From Eledone cirrhosa (lineage: Eukaryota), in the NCBI GenBank assembly GCA_964016885.1, contig OZ024740.1, forward strand, positions 54,994,001-55,058,000: DNA of 64,000 nucleotides, read 5' to 3'. How positions within the stretch are numbered: position 1 is the stretch's first letter; each line of letters starts with the position of its first letter. The notes under the pieces are model-generated. The model worked only from the letters and a program-made list of their open reading frames with translations. It was not told where the DNA came from and did not search any database. Position numbers and translations under genes: made by a program. Below, piece by piece: positions 7,465 to 54,740 of the stretch.

Positions 7465-7500
7465 TCTTTTGATAAAGGACTAGCGTCTGAAACGTTAAGA
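7465..7500 (+). ncRNA. Minimal HHR-like motif with TTGATAA core in a PLE-like fragment (related copies ~20330-20485 (+), ~27890-28050 (-))
   Basis: tctt-TTGATAA-a-ggac(tagc)gtct-GAAA-cg-T-T-aaga. Stem I tctt/aaga; one extra A before stem II. Confidence 0.5.
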
Positions 7501-7882
7501 CCCTCTTCCTGGTATTTCAAGCGTTAACCTAATATACGCCTTCCATACACTGTACCGATTGTGTTGTTATTTTTGTACACCTTTTACACACACACACACA
7601 CACACACACACACACACACACACACACACACACACACACACACACACACACACACATACACACACACACACACACACACATATATATATATATATATATA
7701 TATATATATATATTATGTATATATAAACTCCACGCACATTTTAAGTAACGTGAAAGTGAATTTATAAACCCTTTTACAGATAGGTTTGTCAAGAATATTT
7801 TGTGTGTAATGGTGTAGTACACTCTTTAGATACTGATTGATAGTTTCTAGCTACCAACAAGGACCACTTGAAAGTAGTTGGC

Positions 7883-8002
7883 AGCTTTGCTTTTCATCCT
7901 TACGGGGTTGATAAAATAAAGCACTACTAATGCACTGGAGTCGATTTAATCGAATTTCACCTCCCCCAAAATGTCTGGCCTTGTGCCTATGGTAGAAATC
8001 AT
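7883..8002 (+). mobile_element. tRNA-SINE family A, 5'-truncated copy
   Basis: ctttgcttttcatccttacggggttgataaaataaagcac ... ggccttgtgcctatggtagaaatcatt matches the 40284 copy. Confidence 0.85.
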
Positions 8003-9586
8003 TAATAGCTTGATTCCTTGTTTCATTATATCTATCATCAATACGATTCTTTTCGTTCTGTGTATAGCCAATTATTTATACTGAGCTGAGATATCAGGGA
8101 CAAACAGATCAGTGTAGAACGTAAAAGGAGGTAACTGTTGGGAGACATTTGATCAGAACGACTTGCTCTATATGGTCTACCAAAGAACTTGAAAAAATAA
8201 TCAGTATTGGATATTGTAGAAAATACACCAAGTAATACAATTATTAACAGGGAACTTTGTTAGAAACTAACTACAGAAGCAATTTGTAATGTTATTTTTA
8301 TTAAGTATGACAACGTCGATGATGAAAAACAGCAGAAACAATATATATAAAACCCCAAAGAACAACAACAACTACTATTACTACTACTACAACTATTAGT
8401 ACTACTACTACTACTACTACTACTACTACTACTACTACTACTACTACTACTACTACCACTGTTGCTACTGCTGCTGCTACTACAATCTGAAAATGGATTC
8501 AGTCGACTTTCACAGAAATGACGGTAGTTACTACTAATTCCGAAACATTTTCACTGTTGTAGTTCCTGTAGGCTATAGAAGAGAAATCAGTATATTTTGC
8601 TTTTACTTTCGTTTAGATAGTTTTACATCGCTGGAAGTGAAATGAGGAGGAAGAGTGAGAGCGGGTGCATTTACTTACGTTGCTATTTAAAAAGGCGGAT
8701 AACAAACGAAGGAAAATACAAACGTAGGAACAAATGAAATATATTGTAATGAGAATATTAATACATAATAAATACAGCGAAAACAAACATTCCGGACATA
8801 TACAAGATACATAAAGACGTAAGTCATATCAAGGAAATATCATTAAACATGAACGAATTTTAAGTAGGGTAAAAGTGAATCTGGTAATTTAATAGAAGCA
8901 AGTAGCTGAGTTTAGTTAATGCATGTATAAAGATACACTAGAGCGTTTGACAAACATAACTTGTATTGTTGTTCTGAGTTACTTTGGTGGCAGAACTAAT
9001 CAGTTGCCTAGTTTTCCATCGTCAACAAGTTGTTGTCCAAGGCTGTTTAATCCATTAAGCTGACTAAACTGAATCCTAGGTATGAGTGGGACAGTCATTC
9101 TGGAGGTAGAAGCCATGCAGTGCCCAAATGCAAGATCATGTAGAAATATGACCCAGCTCATCGGTATCTTTGCATCTTGTTGCAGGCATCCAGAGTATGT
9201 CTCAGGTTTCAAGACAAAAAAATAAGGCCCATCAAACAATTTTACCCTGAAATGTGCCATTTGAACTGACCTTTCATTTTCGTGTAAAACGAGAATATAC
9301 ACACACACACACACACACACACACACACACACACACACACACACACACACACACACACACACACACACACACACACACACACACACACACACACACACAC
9401 ACACACATACACACACACACACACACACATATATATATTATATCAACATAAGATATAGGTATCAATACCGCTAGGTGTAGTAGAGGTCGTTCCTTATTGC
9501 CACTTTTAGTAATAATTTGTCAAAGCAGCAACAACAACAACAACAAGAACTACTAGTAGTAGTAACTAATTATATATATATATATA

Positions 9587-9766
9587 GGAACAAGTAAGAC
9601 CCCGACGGCTGAGCTCAAGCCGTTTCGACGGCTAATTCTGCCGTCGAAACGGCTTGAGCTCAGCCGTCGGGGTCTTACTTGTTCCTATTACCCACTCTAT
9701 TACCCTAAGTATTGAGTACTTTGGTGCGTTATGGTCCACCTGGTTCCTTACCACATTTCCTTCGTT
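9587..9766 (+). mobile_element. Fold-back mini-element family F1 in (TA)n: perfect 46-bp inverted arms plus ~80-nt 3' tail
   Basis: 9587-9632 is the reverse complement of 9640-9685 with a 7-nt loop. Other copies at 14717-15228, 16636-16828 and 48155-48305. Confidence 0.9.
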
Positions 9767-51200: not shown

Positions 51201-51944
51201 TTAAATACTTCTGTAGCCGTGGTGTGAATAAAACAAAATTAGATGTGTTCAGAAGATTAAAATTAAGTTACTATCAATTTCTGTTAAATGTCTGCAGGAA
51301 TTTTAAATTGTCTACAACCTAACGTTGTACCAGAGAAGCGAAGTAAATGAAAAAGAGACACGCACTGTTTTTACGTGTTAAACCGATCATCTTTGAAAAC
51401 CATCTCAATCTAAGTAAAAGATAAAATACAAATAATTGTTTCTACTACAAATAATGTTATATCATTTATTTCATCACGCTCTCATCACTCAATCTTTCTG
51501 TCTTTCTCGGATGTATTCCTTTATATTCTTTCTTTCTTTCTCTTCTCTCTGTCTTTATCGGGGTTGATAATTGAAATTGCCTGATGCTCATACCTTTCTC
51601 AATTGTATTAATGTTTATATCTGAATAATAATATAGATTTGTTATATAGAGGACATGATGATGATGATGATAATGATGATGATGATGATGAGGAGGAGGA
51701 GGAGGAGGGGGTGTAGGAGGGGGGTTTTGGTGTTGGTGGTGGTGGTGGTGGTAACGTTGATAGTGATGGTGATGATGAGGAGAAATAATTCCGTTTAATA
51801 GCCACAAGTTCATAAAATGCTGAGGAGAGAAAAAAAGCGAAACACGGAGAAAATCAACGAACAAGAAACGGTAGATTTACATTGAGTAAAAGAGAGTAAT
51901 CAACAATAGACGATAAAGTCATGTTAATAAATATATAATATTAT

Positions 51945-52125
51945 GCAGTATCGGTAGAGGGTCAGACGCCATGTTTTGCAGCCTAGAGTTACGGCCCTTT
52001 ATGATCTGAGTTCAAATCTCGCAGAGGTTAACTTTGCCTTTCATACTTACGGGGTCGATGAAATAAAGTACCAGTAATACACTGGCGTAATTGTTGGCCT
52101 TGTGTCAAAAGCAGAAACAATTATT
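51945..52125 (+). mobile_element. tRNA-SINE family A
   Basis: gcagtatcggtagagggtcagacgcc...gagttcaaatctc...ggccttgtgtcaaaagcagaaacaatt. Confidence 0.9.
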
Positions 52126-53740
52126 ACTATTGTAGTAGGTTTGCCATTTATCTGTGTATGTTTAATTAGAATTGTTTCTAAATAAATAATGTTAATATCT
52201 TGATTGATATCTTCCTCCCTGCACATAAATAACATCTTGTAGAAAATGTGAAGAAAAAAATGAGCAACAACAACAGTACCAACAAATCAAACATACTGTG
52301 TTCATGCAAACCAGTTAAGCTTTAAACGATGAAAGTGAAATAAAATGGCTTCGAATAGGAATGGTAAATGTGGTATTATGAACTTAGCGACGGCTCACTG
52401 ACAAAAAGATATTCTTTTTTTATAGCTGTTTATGTTTTCTAACATCAACACCCATTATGGTTTCAGCTACATCCGGCTAAAGATGTAAATGTCGACCATT
52501 TGTGACATGTCACATGAGAGGATAGTATTTGTCAGTAACGATTATATTCTAATCGCCATTGTGTTCTAATCTGGTCGACACAATTATAAACACTCGCATG
52601 CTCACAGAGAGAGACAGACACTGACACAGGCACACACACACACACACACACACACACACACACACACACACACACACACACACACACACACACACACACA
52701 CACACACACACACACACACACACACATACACATACACACACACACACACACACACACTTAAACACACACACACACACACACACACACACACACACACACA
52801 CACACACACACACACACATATATATATATATATGTATATATATATATATATATATATATATATATATATATATATATATATATATATATGTATGTATAAG
52901 AAAAGAAAGACAAAGGTTATATGAGACGAAAAGTCAAGGGTTGAGCCGTTGTCAATCTATTGCCAAGAACCCTTTCCAGTATTTCACGTCATTCTACAGT
53001 CTATTATGCTGAAGTTCTTCTCACAAAGTAAGTCAGTCAACGCTTTAACCTCAGTGGGTCAACGGACATGAGAGAGAAAAAGAAATAAGGAAACTGGCCG
53101 TATATTTAAACACCAATAGAGCCTGAACAGCATCCATCTTACTAACTGGCAGTATAGTAAATGCATAGCAAAATCTATATATGCATGGATATATATACAA
53201 TGCACATAGACTTACAGAAACCTCGCTTATATGTGCCAAGACGTATCTACCTTGACTCTTACTTTGGTAAATACTATATATACATGTGTGTATATATATA
53301 TATTTATATATATATAATATAGAAATGGCTTCTACAGGACTAGAACGGTTTCATTCGGGAGAAATCATCTAAAATATTTATACTGTGCTTTGTTTTGAGT
53401 ACCTTACTTACTGTGGTTACCCCGATTGAACCCGGGATAAACTTATATATATATATATATATATATATGTATATATGTTTCAATATATATGTGTATATAT
53501 ATATATATAAATATATATATTGAAACATATATACATATATATATATATATATATATATATATATATATATATATATATATATATATATATATATATATAT
53601 ATATATTGAAACATATATACATATATATATATATATATATATATATATATATATATATATATATGTATATATGTTTCAATATATATGTGTATATATATAT
53701 ATATATGATATATATATATATAAATATATATATATATAAA

Positions 53741-54740
53741 TATATCATAAAACATGTCTATAGAATCACAAGATAAAATATATACTATTTCCTCTCCCAA
53801 TTAGCATAATTAACCATATAAAAAATCGAATAGACCAGGCTATAAGAATGAGGCTTCTATGGAGAAATCTCTGACAAATAACCGAAAATAGCACTTCGCG
53901 TCGGCCGTAGCGGAATATTTATCGAATATTTCGACAGCTTAATCGCCCAGATATAGTCAACTAAACAGAATTAGGTGTAAAATAAACTAGGAGAAAATAG
54001 AATATATTTAAATACCTCTACCATGGTTTCGTCCGTATTTTGAGTTTTCCAATAATTATGTAATAATTATATAAACTCGAGCGCCGGATTCATCAGGAAG
54101 CTCGCTCTTATCTAGACACTAAATTTTCCAAAGTGATCGCGCCAAGAAATTCATTTCAAAATGGCTAAAAATCGTGACGTAGTCGCGGTCAGGTTGGAAG
54201 GGGTGTGGTAGTTGCTTACGACTGGTGGTATTTTTGCTAGAAAGCACAGCACAATACAGCCAAATTTGTATCTCAACCTAATGGGAGATTATTACATATA
54301 AAAGTTTACATATATATATACATACATATACATATACGTGTTTTGCAACTGATCACTTTGTGGCTCAATGAAAAATGTATAAATGAAACAATCAGAGCTA
54401 TATATCATAAAACATGTCTATAGAATCACAATATAAAATATATACTATTTCCTCTCCCAATTAGCATAATTAACCATATAAAAAATCGAATAGACCAGGC
54501 TATAAGAATGAGGCTTCTATGGAGAAATCTCCGACAAATAACCGAAAATAGCGCTTCGCGTCGGCCGTAGCGGAATATTTATCGAATATTTCGACAGCGT
54601 AATCGCCCAGATATAGTCAACTAAACAGAATTAGGTGTAAAATAAACTAGGAGAAAATAGAATACATTTAAATACCTCTACCATGGTTTCATCCGTATTT
54701 TGAGTTTTCCAATAATTATGTAATAATTATATAAACTCGA
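53741..54740 (-). mobile_element. 1.5-unit tandem HHR element family F7 (retrozyme-like, 660-nt unit) in (TA)n
   Basis: 53741-54080 is repeated at 54401-54740 with few substitutions. No ORF. Confidence 0.92.
54015..54100 (-). ncRNA. Type I hammerhead ribozyme with extended stem II
   Basis: Reverse complement reads cttc-CTGATGA-atccg..gagttt...aaactc..cggac-GAAA-ccatgg-T-A-gagg. The second repeat has cggat, restoring the A10.1-U11.1 pair. Confidence 0.8.

Follow-up and report, generated by a model that had tools for sequence, protein, structure and literature searches.

The closest described relatives of the elements reported here belong to the Hydra clade of Penelope-like elements (Craig et al. 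2021, PMC8557442), which includes Hydra-1_Obim from Octopus bimaculoides and for which, in the passages of that report drawn upon here, hammerhead ribozymes and insertion into (TA)n were described. Next to these, non-LTR retrozymes were reported from metazoans (Cervera and de la Pena 2020, PMC7229834; Li et al. 2026, bioRxiv 10.64898/2026.07.22.740005), and the parts of both reports used here give about 5,000 copies for the mussel and 120,000 for the axolotl and describe the coexistence of retrozymes with Penelope-like elements, which were proposed as their drivers and origin. Work with PAc Poseidon of Anolis (Frangieh et al. 2024, PMC11167929) identified, in the sections relevant here, two internal start sites that define the tail; the RNA located 3' of these starts was found to be required and hammerhead cleavage to be dispensable in vitro.

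Here, a stretch of 64,000 nucleotides from Eledone cirrhosa (contig OZ024740.1, positions 54,994,001 to 55,058,000; the window) was analysed, for which an earlier note had described fifteen type I hammerhead loci as parts of non-autonomous mini-retroelements landing in (TA)n tracts. The system as such is not new, as elements of the Hydra clade that carry hammerheads and insert into (TA)n have been published before (PMC8557442). With good confidence, the islands between the tracts are considered to be short 3' ends of Penelope-like elements and of ORF-less tandem units, likely made by Hydra-clade (in some cases Neptune-type) RT-endonucleases which would use two fixed internal starts.

A strict descriptor (type I, C3-G8 or U3-A8, palindromic stem III) gave four matches in the window versus a null mean of 0.03, and seven versus 0.63 when one core change was allowed. 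Neither count was reached by any of 200 local dinucleotide shuffles of the window, hence the comparison that had been named beforehand as a check revealed strict matches to exceed chance. With looser settings the signal in the window was lost (nine matches versus 3.1, reached by 2 of 200 shuffles, and six versus 4.2, reached by 48 of 200). Systematic genome samples of 1.19 Mb contain 124 perfect-core motifs as compared to 1-7 in shuffles, from which a total of about 3x10^5 per genome was extrapolated versus 2,000-9,000 in the parts of the pseudo-LTR hammerhead report considered (Cervera and de la Pena 2014, PMC4209133); the E. cirrhosa genome may be the most hammerhead-rich described. The strict density genome-wide is about one per 10 kb in these samples, and the earlier estimate of one hammerhead per 4 kb holds within the window if decayed copies are counted. 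Rfam at its gathering score returned 0 matches in four descriptor-rich loci, in line with the expectation that standard annotation misses these motifs.

The fifteen loci make up 13 families (11029 belongs with 47554 and 26299 with 47943), all of which recur elsewhere in the genome and have relatives that carry a type I hammerhead core. Eight loci pass the strict descriptor on their own (7465, 11029, 11821, 12326, 21302, 46840, 47554, 54015), and the other seven, which do not, are recognised through repeat-family relatives carrying the core. Not all window copies are undamaged: the core is intact in nine, and six are regarded as decayed because it is changed by eye (A13 in 11029 and 19908, A15.1 in 11821, A6 in 12326, U4 in 14291, one A missing in 34750). 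The statement that almost every short island is such an element was too strong, as 26 of 51 islands between (TA)6 tracts are covered to at least 40% by families, in a library which included one foldback family without a detected hammerhead; overall, families cover 7,762 of the 52,368 non-microsatellite bases of the window. The features are:

7398..7584, plus strand: family 7465 element, ORF-less, ending on (CA)n/(TA)n; hammerhead 7465-7500, U3-A8 here and C3-G8 in relatives
9587..9765, plus strand: 9587 two-armed stub of a young autonomous element, by motifs Hydra-clade; both arms stop inside the hammerhead
10958..11101, minus strand: family 47554 short arm (probably Neptune); hammerhead 11029-11064, A13 changed
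11770..12005, plus strand: family 11821 element; hammerhead 11821-11859, A15.1 changed
12072..12573, plus strand: family 12326 two-armed ORF-less copy; hammerhead 12326-12406, A6 changed, stem II covarying
14285..14393, plus strand: family 14291; decayed hammerhead 14291-14378, family core present, stem I of just 2 bp
14717..15227, plus strand: 9587 Hydra-family stub with a TA-rich tract between the arms
16636..16827, plus strand: 9587 Hydra-family two-armed stub
19318..19758, no single strand: family 19604 two-armed (foldback) copy; hammerheads 19604-19651 (plus) and about 19425-19472 (minus), stem III non-palindromic
19834..20081, minus strand: family 19908, old; hammerhead 19905-19955, A13 changed, relatives 73-82% identical
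21183..21503, plus strand: 21302 truncated 3' end of an autonomous Hydra-clade element; intact hammerhead 21302-21356
26287..26370, plus strand: 47943 Hydra-family short arm; hammerhead 26299-26338
33635..33983, minus strand: family 33754; hammerhead 33754-33796, more pieces at 33455-33508 and 34112-34158
34235..35006, no single strand: family 34750 two-armed ORF-less copy; hammerhead 34750-34832 (plus), one A missing, and a partial second hammerhead on the minus strand
38367..38723, no single strand: tail-only two-armed stub, sister of family 54015
15438-15482, 20382-20467, 27857-27988 and 59817-59966: other tail-only stubs
46298..46998, no single strand: family 46840 two-armed ORF-less copy; intact hammerheads 46535-46624 (minus) and 46840-46929 (plus), arms 100% identical across 161 nt
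47519..47700, plus strand: 47554 truncated 3' end, probably Neptune-clade; intact U3-A8 hammerhead 47554-47589
47764..48012, no single strand: 47943 two-armed stub of an autonomous Hydra-clade element; hammerhead 47943-47980 (plus), a second on the minus arm
48147..48304, plus strand: 9587 Hydra-family stub
48466..48632, no single strand: 48466, another abundant Hydra family, as a two-armed stub; second copy at 48958-49080
53317..53443, no single strand: one more hammerhead family (FAM3), as a two-armed stub that consists of tail only
53740..54739, minus strand: family 54015 partial tandem, ORF-less; intact hammerhead 54014-54101, second unit cut inside the hammerhead

Three of the 13 families (five of the 15 loci) are 5'-truncated, often two-armed 3' ends of autonomous Penelope-like elements, assigned to Hydra and in one case probably to Neptune, so that the description of all elements as non-autonomous fails for these truncated ends of ORF-bearing elements. 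Six families consist of tandemly repeated units without an ORF, about 490-660 nt long (non-LTR retrozymes), and for four (11821, 14291, 19604, 19908) neither an ORF link nor a tandem unit was found in the samples. Two abundant Hydra stub families, 9587 and 48466, had been missed; these too are truncated ends of ORF-bearing elements.

The search for autonomous partners with the same termini, proposed earlier, was successful: five families possess full-length copies with an ORF, and in one of them (9587) intact ORFs of 719 aa occur. In the sampled loci L066 and L137 a Hydra ORF and this family are collinear, the best-scored 40 copies of the ORF are 99% identical, and in 12 of 30 fetched loci the frame is open over 716 codons or more, RWR, DKT and CxCX5C occurring together in 10 of these 12. 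For 21302, L300 and L303 have the ORF end 1,222-1,224 nt upstream, with collinearity in L305 and L308; for 47943 it lies about 300 nt upstream in L082, the family being collinear with L002, L003 and L213; and 48466 adjoins the Hydra ORF of L081 at its 3' end. [quoted passage not shown] The protein was not recognised in Pfam and PDB sequence searches; its predicted structure is confident (pLDDT 93), 2,084 homologues were obtained among 8,000 scored, and some members of the atlas look-alikes (0.96-0.99) bear HTH_animal, GIY-YIG and RVT_1. Motifs and architecture assign 9587 to the Hydra clade, with which 21302, 47943 and 48466 are also classed. The 9587 element measures about 3.5 kb (ORF 2.2 kb, 3' UTR 1.1 kb) as compared to 'generally' below 3 kb in the published clade, a difference which does not exclude membership. 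Unlike the few families given beyond cnidarians in the cited parts of that report, many families are present here, and the stubs of one Hydra family number in the tens of thousands (1.45 Mb contain about 40 full-tail arms). Family 47554/11029 is by motif probably Neptune-clade: by eye a C-terminal peptide was matched in L110 and L093, the sister family (L086/L116) possesses, like the Neptune clade, a CX2-5CxxC linker before GIY-YIG, a hammerhead and microsatellite insertion, and tblastn with the queries used gave no match on four upstream stretches.

Most families with enough copies show two end modes each. Full-tail 9587 arms lie flush with TA in 37 of 40 cases versus 5% background, and for the families together the predicted cut is followed by a (TA)7 tract no more than 420 nt downstream in 405 of 490 copies versus 27% background. 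Landing in (TA)n was confirmed; family 7465 often ends on (CA)n or mixed tracts instead. Among 34 copies of 9587, 21 are two-armed, and both arms overlap the same stretch of RNA with variable junctions, the 18 distinct junction pairs pointing to independent truncations. The ORF-less units show the same end pattern as the autonomous families. Most arms read through the predicted cut, which was also described in vitro for a Poseidon element. Hammerheads in pseudo-LTRs, the (TA)n target, an inverted truncated 5' arm and an optional tail likewise correspond to the Hydra clade as far as cited (PMC8557442). The pseudo-LTR minimal hammerheads resemble those here, within the parts of PMC4209133 used, in the many families per genome, palindromic stem III and the U3-A8 variant, and also in mostly being single motifs from truncated elements with opposite-strand pairs 100-700 bp apart.

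In the suggested mechanism, the GIY-YIG domain would nick a (TA)n tract on both strands, and from each nick reverse transcription would be primed at one of the two starts, whose position is probably determined by a CTC...GAG hairpin a short distance 3' of either. Copying would usually halt within about 100 nt past the predicted hammerhead cut, and the two cDNAs would be joined head to head. Uncut tandem RNA or a religated circle may serve as template, and ORF-less units with the same start hairpin could be moved by an enzyme supplied in trans. Trimming of tandem transcripts to single units is the predicted task of the hammerhead, which may act as a dimer and would be dispensable at insertion. 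Two starts defining the tail, AT-rich cleavage of both strands, an uncut RNA template and the role of RNA 3' of the starts are paralleled in PAc Poseidon (PMC11167929, sections cited above), which belongs to another clade and has its starts in an AC-rich stem-loop inside the ORF; the ends here differ in being located at UA steps upstream of the ORF, with a CTC...GAG hairpin after each.

This hairpin was found 3' of 12 of 21 mapped ends versus 7.4% background, in Hydra and ORF-less families alike, a count to be read with the caveat that the hairpin was picked from the same data and that the ends are not independent. Its strict form is present at 7 of 8 Hydra ends, 4 of 9 ORF-less ends and 0 of 1 Neptune ends; in four ORF-less families it, or a compensated version, follows one end or both, and by eye it occurs in four of the six Hydra consensus sequences taken from the literature, the cited parts of the clade description (PMC8557442) making no mention of it. 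It is a candidate start signal tying retrozymes to the Hydra enzyme. That it positions the Hydra RT from 5-15 nt 3' of each start, conserved from coral and sea cucumber to the present species and borrowed by ORF-less units, is given even chances. As it is the next repeat unit that contains the outer hairpin, the template would have to be tandem or circular. If this reading is true, the enzyme copying animal retrozymes would be named, and the young intact 719-aa ORFs would allow tests in vitro of how retrozymes are mobilised and what the hammerhead does. It is rather unlikely that another enzyme (Neptune, Naiad or LINE) moves the ORF-less units, or that these spread as satellites with TA tracts as a common target or sink. 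Neptune and Naiad also favour microsatellites (PMC8557442, passages on targets), the hairpin is absent at 5 of 9 ORF-less ends, and the (CA)n ends of family 7465 would fit; dispersed two-armed copies with two fixed ends, however, are the signature of Penelope-like elements and not of satellites, and the Hydra-type hairpins of the four ORF-less families also argue against it.

Equally improbable is that the hammerheads are catalytically idle relics, uncut RNA being inserted and the fold mattering as a copying stop. The predicted cut is crossed by 34 of 40 full-tail 9587 arms, with one stopping there and arms accumulating 25-45 nt beyond it; in six families with longer tails 59 of 72 arms cross and three stop, in a count omitting family 48466, where the length filter hides arms stopping at the cut. 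The abundant Hydra family 48466 is fixed for an A at core position 4 (22 sample matches with that core), a variant without mention in the cited parts of PMC4209133, many short motifs do not fold as hammerheads in monomer predictions, and the Poseidon element needs no cleavage in vitro. Religated circles, however, would yield identical read-through. Moreover, at least 19 families with differing stems retain the core, and the 3-8 pair switches jointly (115 C-G and 36 U-A among the perfect-core matches of all samples). The earlier claim that stem pairing is kept was followed in two families, with homologues gathered by sequence: in 12326, two of six stem II pairs are changed on both sides, one pair shows four pair types, and 98% of cells pair, a value that none of 500 shuffles and none of the slid controls attained; family 19908, which is old, showed no covariation beyond shuffles. 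The palindromic loop 3, likewise claimed as usual, is present in 89 of 151 perfect-core matches of all samples, a count in which one of the two descriptors required it, and stem III is a plain hairpin in 19604 and 34750.

Clearly unlikely, more so than the two preceding alternatives, is that all families are truncated autonomous ends whose short tandems represent partial pseudo-LTR repeats, with no true retrozymes among them. Tandem pseudo-LTRs are normal in Penelope-like elements (PMC8557442, as cited), 3' UTRs of more than 1 kb conceal the ORF from short flanks, and four families show neither an ORF link nor a tandem unit in the samples. Against this stand the 12 tandem spacings of 591-598 nt in 46840, a constant head-to-tail repeat over more than two units with no ORF within 1,312 nt of shared upstream sequence, and three spacings of 522-528 nt in 12326, forming a trimer. 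The 54015 unit of 660 nt adds copies with one common start. Single spacings were found in 34750 (507 nt) and 7465 (496 nt), and same-strand neighbours of 33754 lie 470 and 493 nt apart elsewhere, the unit being read from coordinates. ORF-less head-to-tail units with one type I hammerhead each, as in the published non-LTR retrozymes considered, are thus found in 7465, 12326, 33754, 34750, 46840 and 54015, with strong support in 46840 and 12326 and one pair each in 7465 and 34750. They differ from the published units in being longer (about 490-660 nt versus 150-450 bp, in the parts cited) and, as known from DNA sequence, in being mostly dispersed two-armed (TA)n insertions. Least probable of all is a community of non-coding ribozyme mini-retroelements independent of autonomous elements and copied as short units, for which ORF-less tandem units in 6 of 13 families, the predominance of short copies in every family and some recurring 9587 junctions may speak, yet which the diversity of the 9587 junction pairs contradicts and which is refuted for the ORF-linked families, three listed and two missed ones being collinear into RT-endonuclease ORFs, and holds for the tandem families. 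The broader kinship with Penelope-like pseudo-LTRs and retrozymes proposed in the earlier note was confirmed, the type I hammerheads being borne by retroelements.

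The window, part of a 3.0-Gb assembly, is AT-rich and packed with microsatellites, and no host gene was evident among its inspected ORFs of at least 100 codons. The strict descriptor, i.e., a type I hammerhead with either a C3-G8 or a U3-A8 pair and an obligatory palindromic stem III, returned four matches in the window as compared to 0.03 in local dinucleotide shuffles, and seven as compared to 0.63 when one core change was permitted, whereby neither count was reached by any of 200 shuffles. Looser descriptors gave 9 versus 3.1 and 6 versus 4.2 matches in the window, hence no gain over shuffles, and specificity consequently hangs on the strict form of the descriptor. 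The earliest descriptor recovered one listed locus, since it allowed neither the U3-A8 pair nor a mismatch at the first pair of stem II. The fifteen hammerhead loci listed in the earlier note represent 13 families; eight pass the descriptor directly, and each of the other seven belongs to a family whose relatives, collected through sequence similarity in sampled genome stretches totalling 1.45 Mb and through targeted searches, have the core. When the window copies were read directly, the core was found to be intact in nine and changed in six. That almost every short island between (TA)n tracts is an element was an overstatement, as this applies to only 26 of 51 short islands.

The excess over shuffled sequence was likewise found outside the window, where 119 evenly spaced 10-kb regions contained 124 perfect-core matches versus one to seven in five shuffles. 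These collapse to 85 insertions, spread over 58 regions. In these systematic samples perfect-core hammerheads reach a striking density of about 100 per Mb, and a bootstrap yielded a genome-wide estimate of 2.1-4.0 x 10^5 motifs. The matches of all samples form 43 clusters, 20 of which have at least two members, including one false family (FAM19) that was dropped from the count as an A-rich repeat; the commonest hammerhead cluster, FAM1, has 31 matches. Sequences matching hammerhead families occupy roughly 7% of the sampled bases, a rough figure in which ORFs and UTRs are counted. At the 3-8 pair, 115 of 151 matches have C-G and the other 36 have U-A. Stem covariation was present in stem II of family 12326 but absent from the old family 19908. 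Monomer folding energies were mostly unremarkable, with z < -2 in only 2 of 16 cases. Among the best 150 of 303 Rfam matches in the window no hammerhead occurred, these matches being microsatellite-driven, below gathering score and mostly to microRNA models; at four descriptor-rich loci, too, Rfam scoring at the gathering score missed these hammerheads.

By the features tested, the best-fitting identity of this population is a mix of 3' stubs of Penelope-like elements (PLEs) of the Hydra clade, probably also of the Neptune group, and of non-LTR retrozymes, i.e., ORF-less hammerhead units. The first component includes the foldback family 9587 (families are named after the window position of one copy), which had been absent from the list and whose window copies start at 9587, 14717, 16636 and 48147. 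In its parent element, which lies between TA tracts, a truncated RT-GIY-YIG ORF with a 1.1-kb 3' UTR is accompanied by a short arm in inverted orientation, by the hammerhead and by a tail. The ORF region is 99% identical in the 40 best-scored copies; an open frame of at least 716 codons was found in 12 of 30 fetched loci, RWR, DKT and CxCX5C were all present in 10 of the 30, and nine fetched loci carry a same-strand hammerhead just ahead of the ORF, i.e., a tandem pseudo-LTR. These features are diagnostics of the Hydra clade (PMC8557442), and the supplement of the same report describes both (TA)n preference and a hammerhead for Hydra-1_Obim, which the main retroelement of this genome resembles by eye at the level of motifs. 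For the 719-aa ORF 8,000 candidates were scored, of which 2,084 are homologues, most of them without a name and about 40% identical. HTH_animal, GIY-YIG and RVT_1 occur in some members of its atlas look-alikes, and its structure model is confident (pLDDT 93). Neither Pfam, queried with five PLE peptides, nor a profile search of the PDB with the Hydra protein gave a match; the assignment to the Hydra clade is thus made on motifs and architecture and not on a tree.

The search for autonomous partners encoding a PLE RT and GIY-YIG was successful for further families, as 21302 and 47943/26299 continue collinearly into Hydra-type ORFs, and the earlier reading of the elements as non-autonomous does not apply to these, whereas it probably holds for the six ORF-less tandem families described below. 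Family 48466, also absent from the list, is collinear with a Hydra-type ORF and carries A at hammerhead core position 4, as do 22 descriptor matches of the sample which represent this abundant family. That a successful family is fixed for a change at a conserved base of the core hints at catalysis which is relaxed or altered.

Position-4 variant family and a nested unit (L-numbers, loci elsewhere in the genome)
Window 48466-48632 and 48958-49080: family 48466, A at core position 4
L081:1330-2400, minus strand: family 48466, A at core position 4
L279:320-1283: 54015 unit nested within the 3' UTR of a 21302-family element

At core position 4, family 14291 has C in about 8 of its 20 fetched copies, and C is likewise found there in FAM12. 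For family 47554/11029, about 1.5 kb of upstream sequence is common to the copies and ends in a peptide which by eye resembles the C-terminus of a Neptune-type GIY-YIG domain; in two loci of a diverged sister a Neptune-type ORF was recognized by eye 1,010 nt upstream, and tblastn did not detect the Neptune ORF link of 47554/11029. FAM1 and FAM10 are likewise joined to Hydra ORFs (L056, L187, L190, L192, L080, L088). Taken together, matches to Hydra-type ORFs amount to 36 kb of the sampled 1.19 Mb and occur in 29 of 119 regions.

The second component consists of families forming head-to-tail arrays, with units of 591-598 nt for 46840 (12 spacings), 522-528 nt for 12326, 507 nt for 34750, 496 nt for 7465 and 660 nt for 54015, and, from coordinates alone, a spacing of 470-493 nt for 33754. 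Upstream of these six families no same-strand PLE ORF was found, bar two cases read as neighbours: the ORF link of 54015 in L279 was rejected on account of the nesting listed, and that of 46840 in L010 because the ORF element is a neighbour across a TA tract. As judged from their sequence features, the six families fit non-LTR retrozymes. Among the sequencing runs listed for the 46840 unit there was no RNA data set, which counts neither for nor against its expression. Nesting of one family in another is common among the fetched loci. Families 11821, 14291, 19604 and 19908, dispersed genome-wide, were placed in neither the ORF-linked nor the tandem group. Two further ORF-less tandem clusters occur outside the window, namely FAM5 (L186:245-5000; 11 copies spaced by about 310 nt) and FAM9 (L081:5231-6106; unit of about 467 nt).

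Among families with sufficient copies, most end at two fixed points downstream from the predicted cut, each flush with (TA)n; these lie at about +18 and +97-100 from the cut in 9587 and at about +77 and +240 in 46840. Full-tail arms of 9587 abut TA in 37 of 40 cases versus a background of 5%. At tandem junctions the element runs on with no TA tract between units, which argues that the TA tract is the target and not a part of the element. Insertions as the source of the TA richness were rejected, since only 233 of 1,876 (TA)6 tracts abut a match to the family library; the hammerhead count correlates with TA content (rho 0.49). In two-armed copies an inverted short-ended arm is joined to a full-tail arm, the same RNA stretch being present in both and the point of junction varying; 21 of 34 copies of 9587 are of this kind, with 18 distinct junction pairs. 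Dimers formed through palindromic stem III were considered as the cause of such insertions and set aside, because 19604 and 34750 are two-armed despite a plain hairpin stem III, and Naiads lacking a hammerhead carry inverted arms (PMC8557442). The predicted cut is crossed by 34 of 40 full-tail 9587 arms and, over six families, by 59 of 72 arms, with three stopping there (43 arms of 48466 were left out of this count, as the length filter hides arms stopping at its cut). Since the arms cross the predicted cut, the template of insertion would be either uncut tandem RNA or a religated circle. Most arms end in the hammerhead or just beyond, hence the genome is strewn with hammerhead-sized stubs. 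Arm ends of 9587 accumulate some 25-45 nt 5' of the predicted cut, immediately beyond a 6-bp hairpin that competes with the hammerhead fold and, speculatively, may serve to halt reverse transcription.

Reading on from each end into the continuation, a hairpin closed by CTC...GAG begins a few bases further. Of the 21 ends with known continuation (two further ends, lacking continuation in the sample, are excluded), 12 show the fixed pattern, versus 7.4% of randomly chosen places within these elements. Because the pattern was selected on the very ends counted, which also depend on one another, a binomial figure cannot be taken as a true probability. By group, it occurs at 7 of 8 Hydra, 4 of 9 ORF-less, 1 of 3 unassigned and 0 of 1 Neptune ends. 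A compensated form, TTC...GAA, occurs at two ends, and for the inner ends of 47943 and 34750, which count as negative, the hairpin is present in other copies; it is absent at the mapped ends of FAM5 and FAM9. By eye, the published Hydra-2_Amil, Hydra-1_Ajap, Hydra-2_Ajap and Hydra-1_Crog have the same hairpin at their ends, and it is not clear in Hydra-1_Amil or Hydra-1_Obim. The hairpin of the outer end sits in the next unit, which again requires a tandem or circular template. This candidate start hairpin would position the Hydra enzyme, and ORF-less units possessing it would be Hydra passengers.

The observation of the earlier note is thus real and the motifs are abundant; the element types are already known, constituting no new system, and the interpretation is corrected in part. 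Anolis Poseidon cuts AT-rich DNA on both strands, as proposed here, and two internal start sites define its tail, matching the two fixed ends; RNA 3' of the start sites is required and hammerhead cleavage is dispensable in vitro (PMC11167929). It was reported previously that a genome may host many hammerhead families, that most motifs are single ones left by truncated elements, and that pairs on opposite strands as well as the U3-A8 variant occur; minimal motifs were found to cleave best as dimers, with low activity even so (PMC4209133). The present estimate compares with 2,000-9,000 PLE-borne motifs (PMC4209133) and with retrozyme numbers of about 5,000 (mussel) and 120,000 (axolotl), for which PLEs were named as candidate driver (PMC7229834); a 2026 preprint argues that retrozymes derive from PLEs (bioRxiv 10.64898/2026.07.22.740005). 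The giant squid annotation holds 235 hammerheads (PMC6962438), and the main text of a 2026 Octopus vulgaris repeat annotation contains neither "ribozyme" nor "hammerhead" (PMC13282606). In the literature searched, chiefly outside subscription papers and Repbase reports, no genome-wide hammerhead count in an octopus, no CTC...GAG start hairpin and no position-4 variant family were found. In annotation, the short foldback stubs might pass for MITEs or SINEs. The enzyme mobilising animal retrozymes is an open question in print; with a shared candidate start hairpin, a pair of mapped start sites and ORFs that are both young and intact, this mobilisation becomes directly testable.

Other repeats were identified in the window as well.

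Further repeats in the window
7885, 20741-20929, 30523, 37219, 37748-37926, 40283-40479, 51945-52128, 54809-54967, 55822-56014 and 63485: ten copies of a repeat of about 190 nt
17297-18120 and 4870-5431: two related LINE-like fragments

The repeat of about 190 nt is neither tied to (TA)n nor provided with a hammerhead and by eye looks like a tRNA-derived SINE. The LINE-like fragment at 17297-18120 has a weak zf-RVT match under the Pfam cut-off, and more such remnants were seen by eye near 24000-24830 and 44700-45250. A TA-flanked foldback family at 47093-47494, with copies elsewhere, has no hammerhead by descriptor and is possibly a tail-only stub or a hammerhead-less PLE family. A short TA-flanked foldback about a (TAC)n tract lies at 9820-9957, and a long degenerate, C/A-skewed triplet region extends over 49800-51250.
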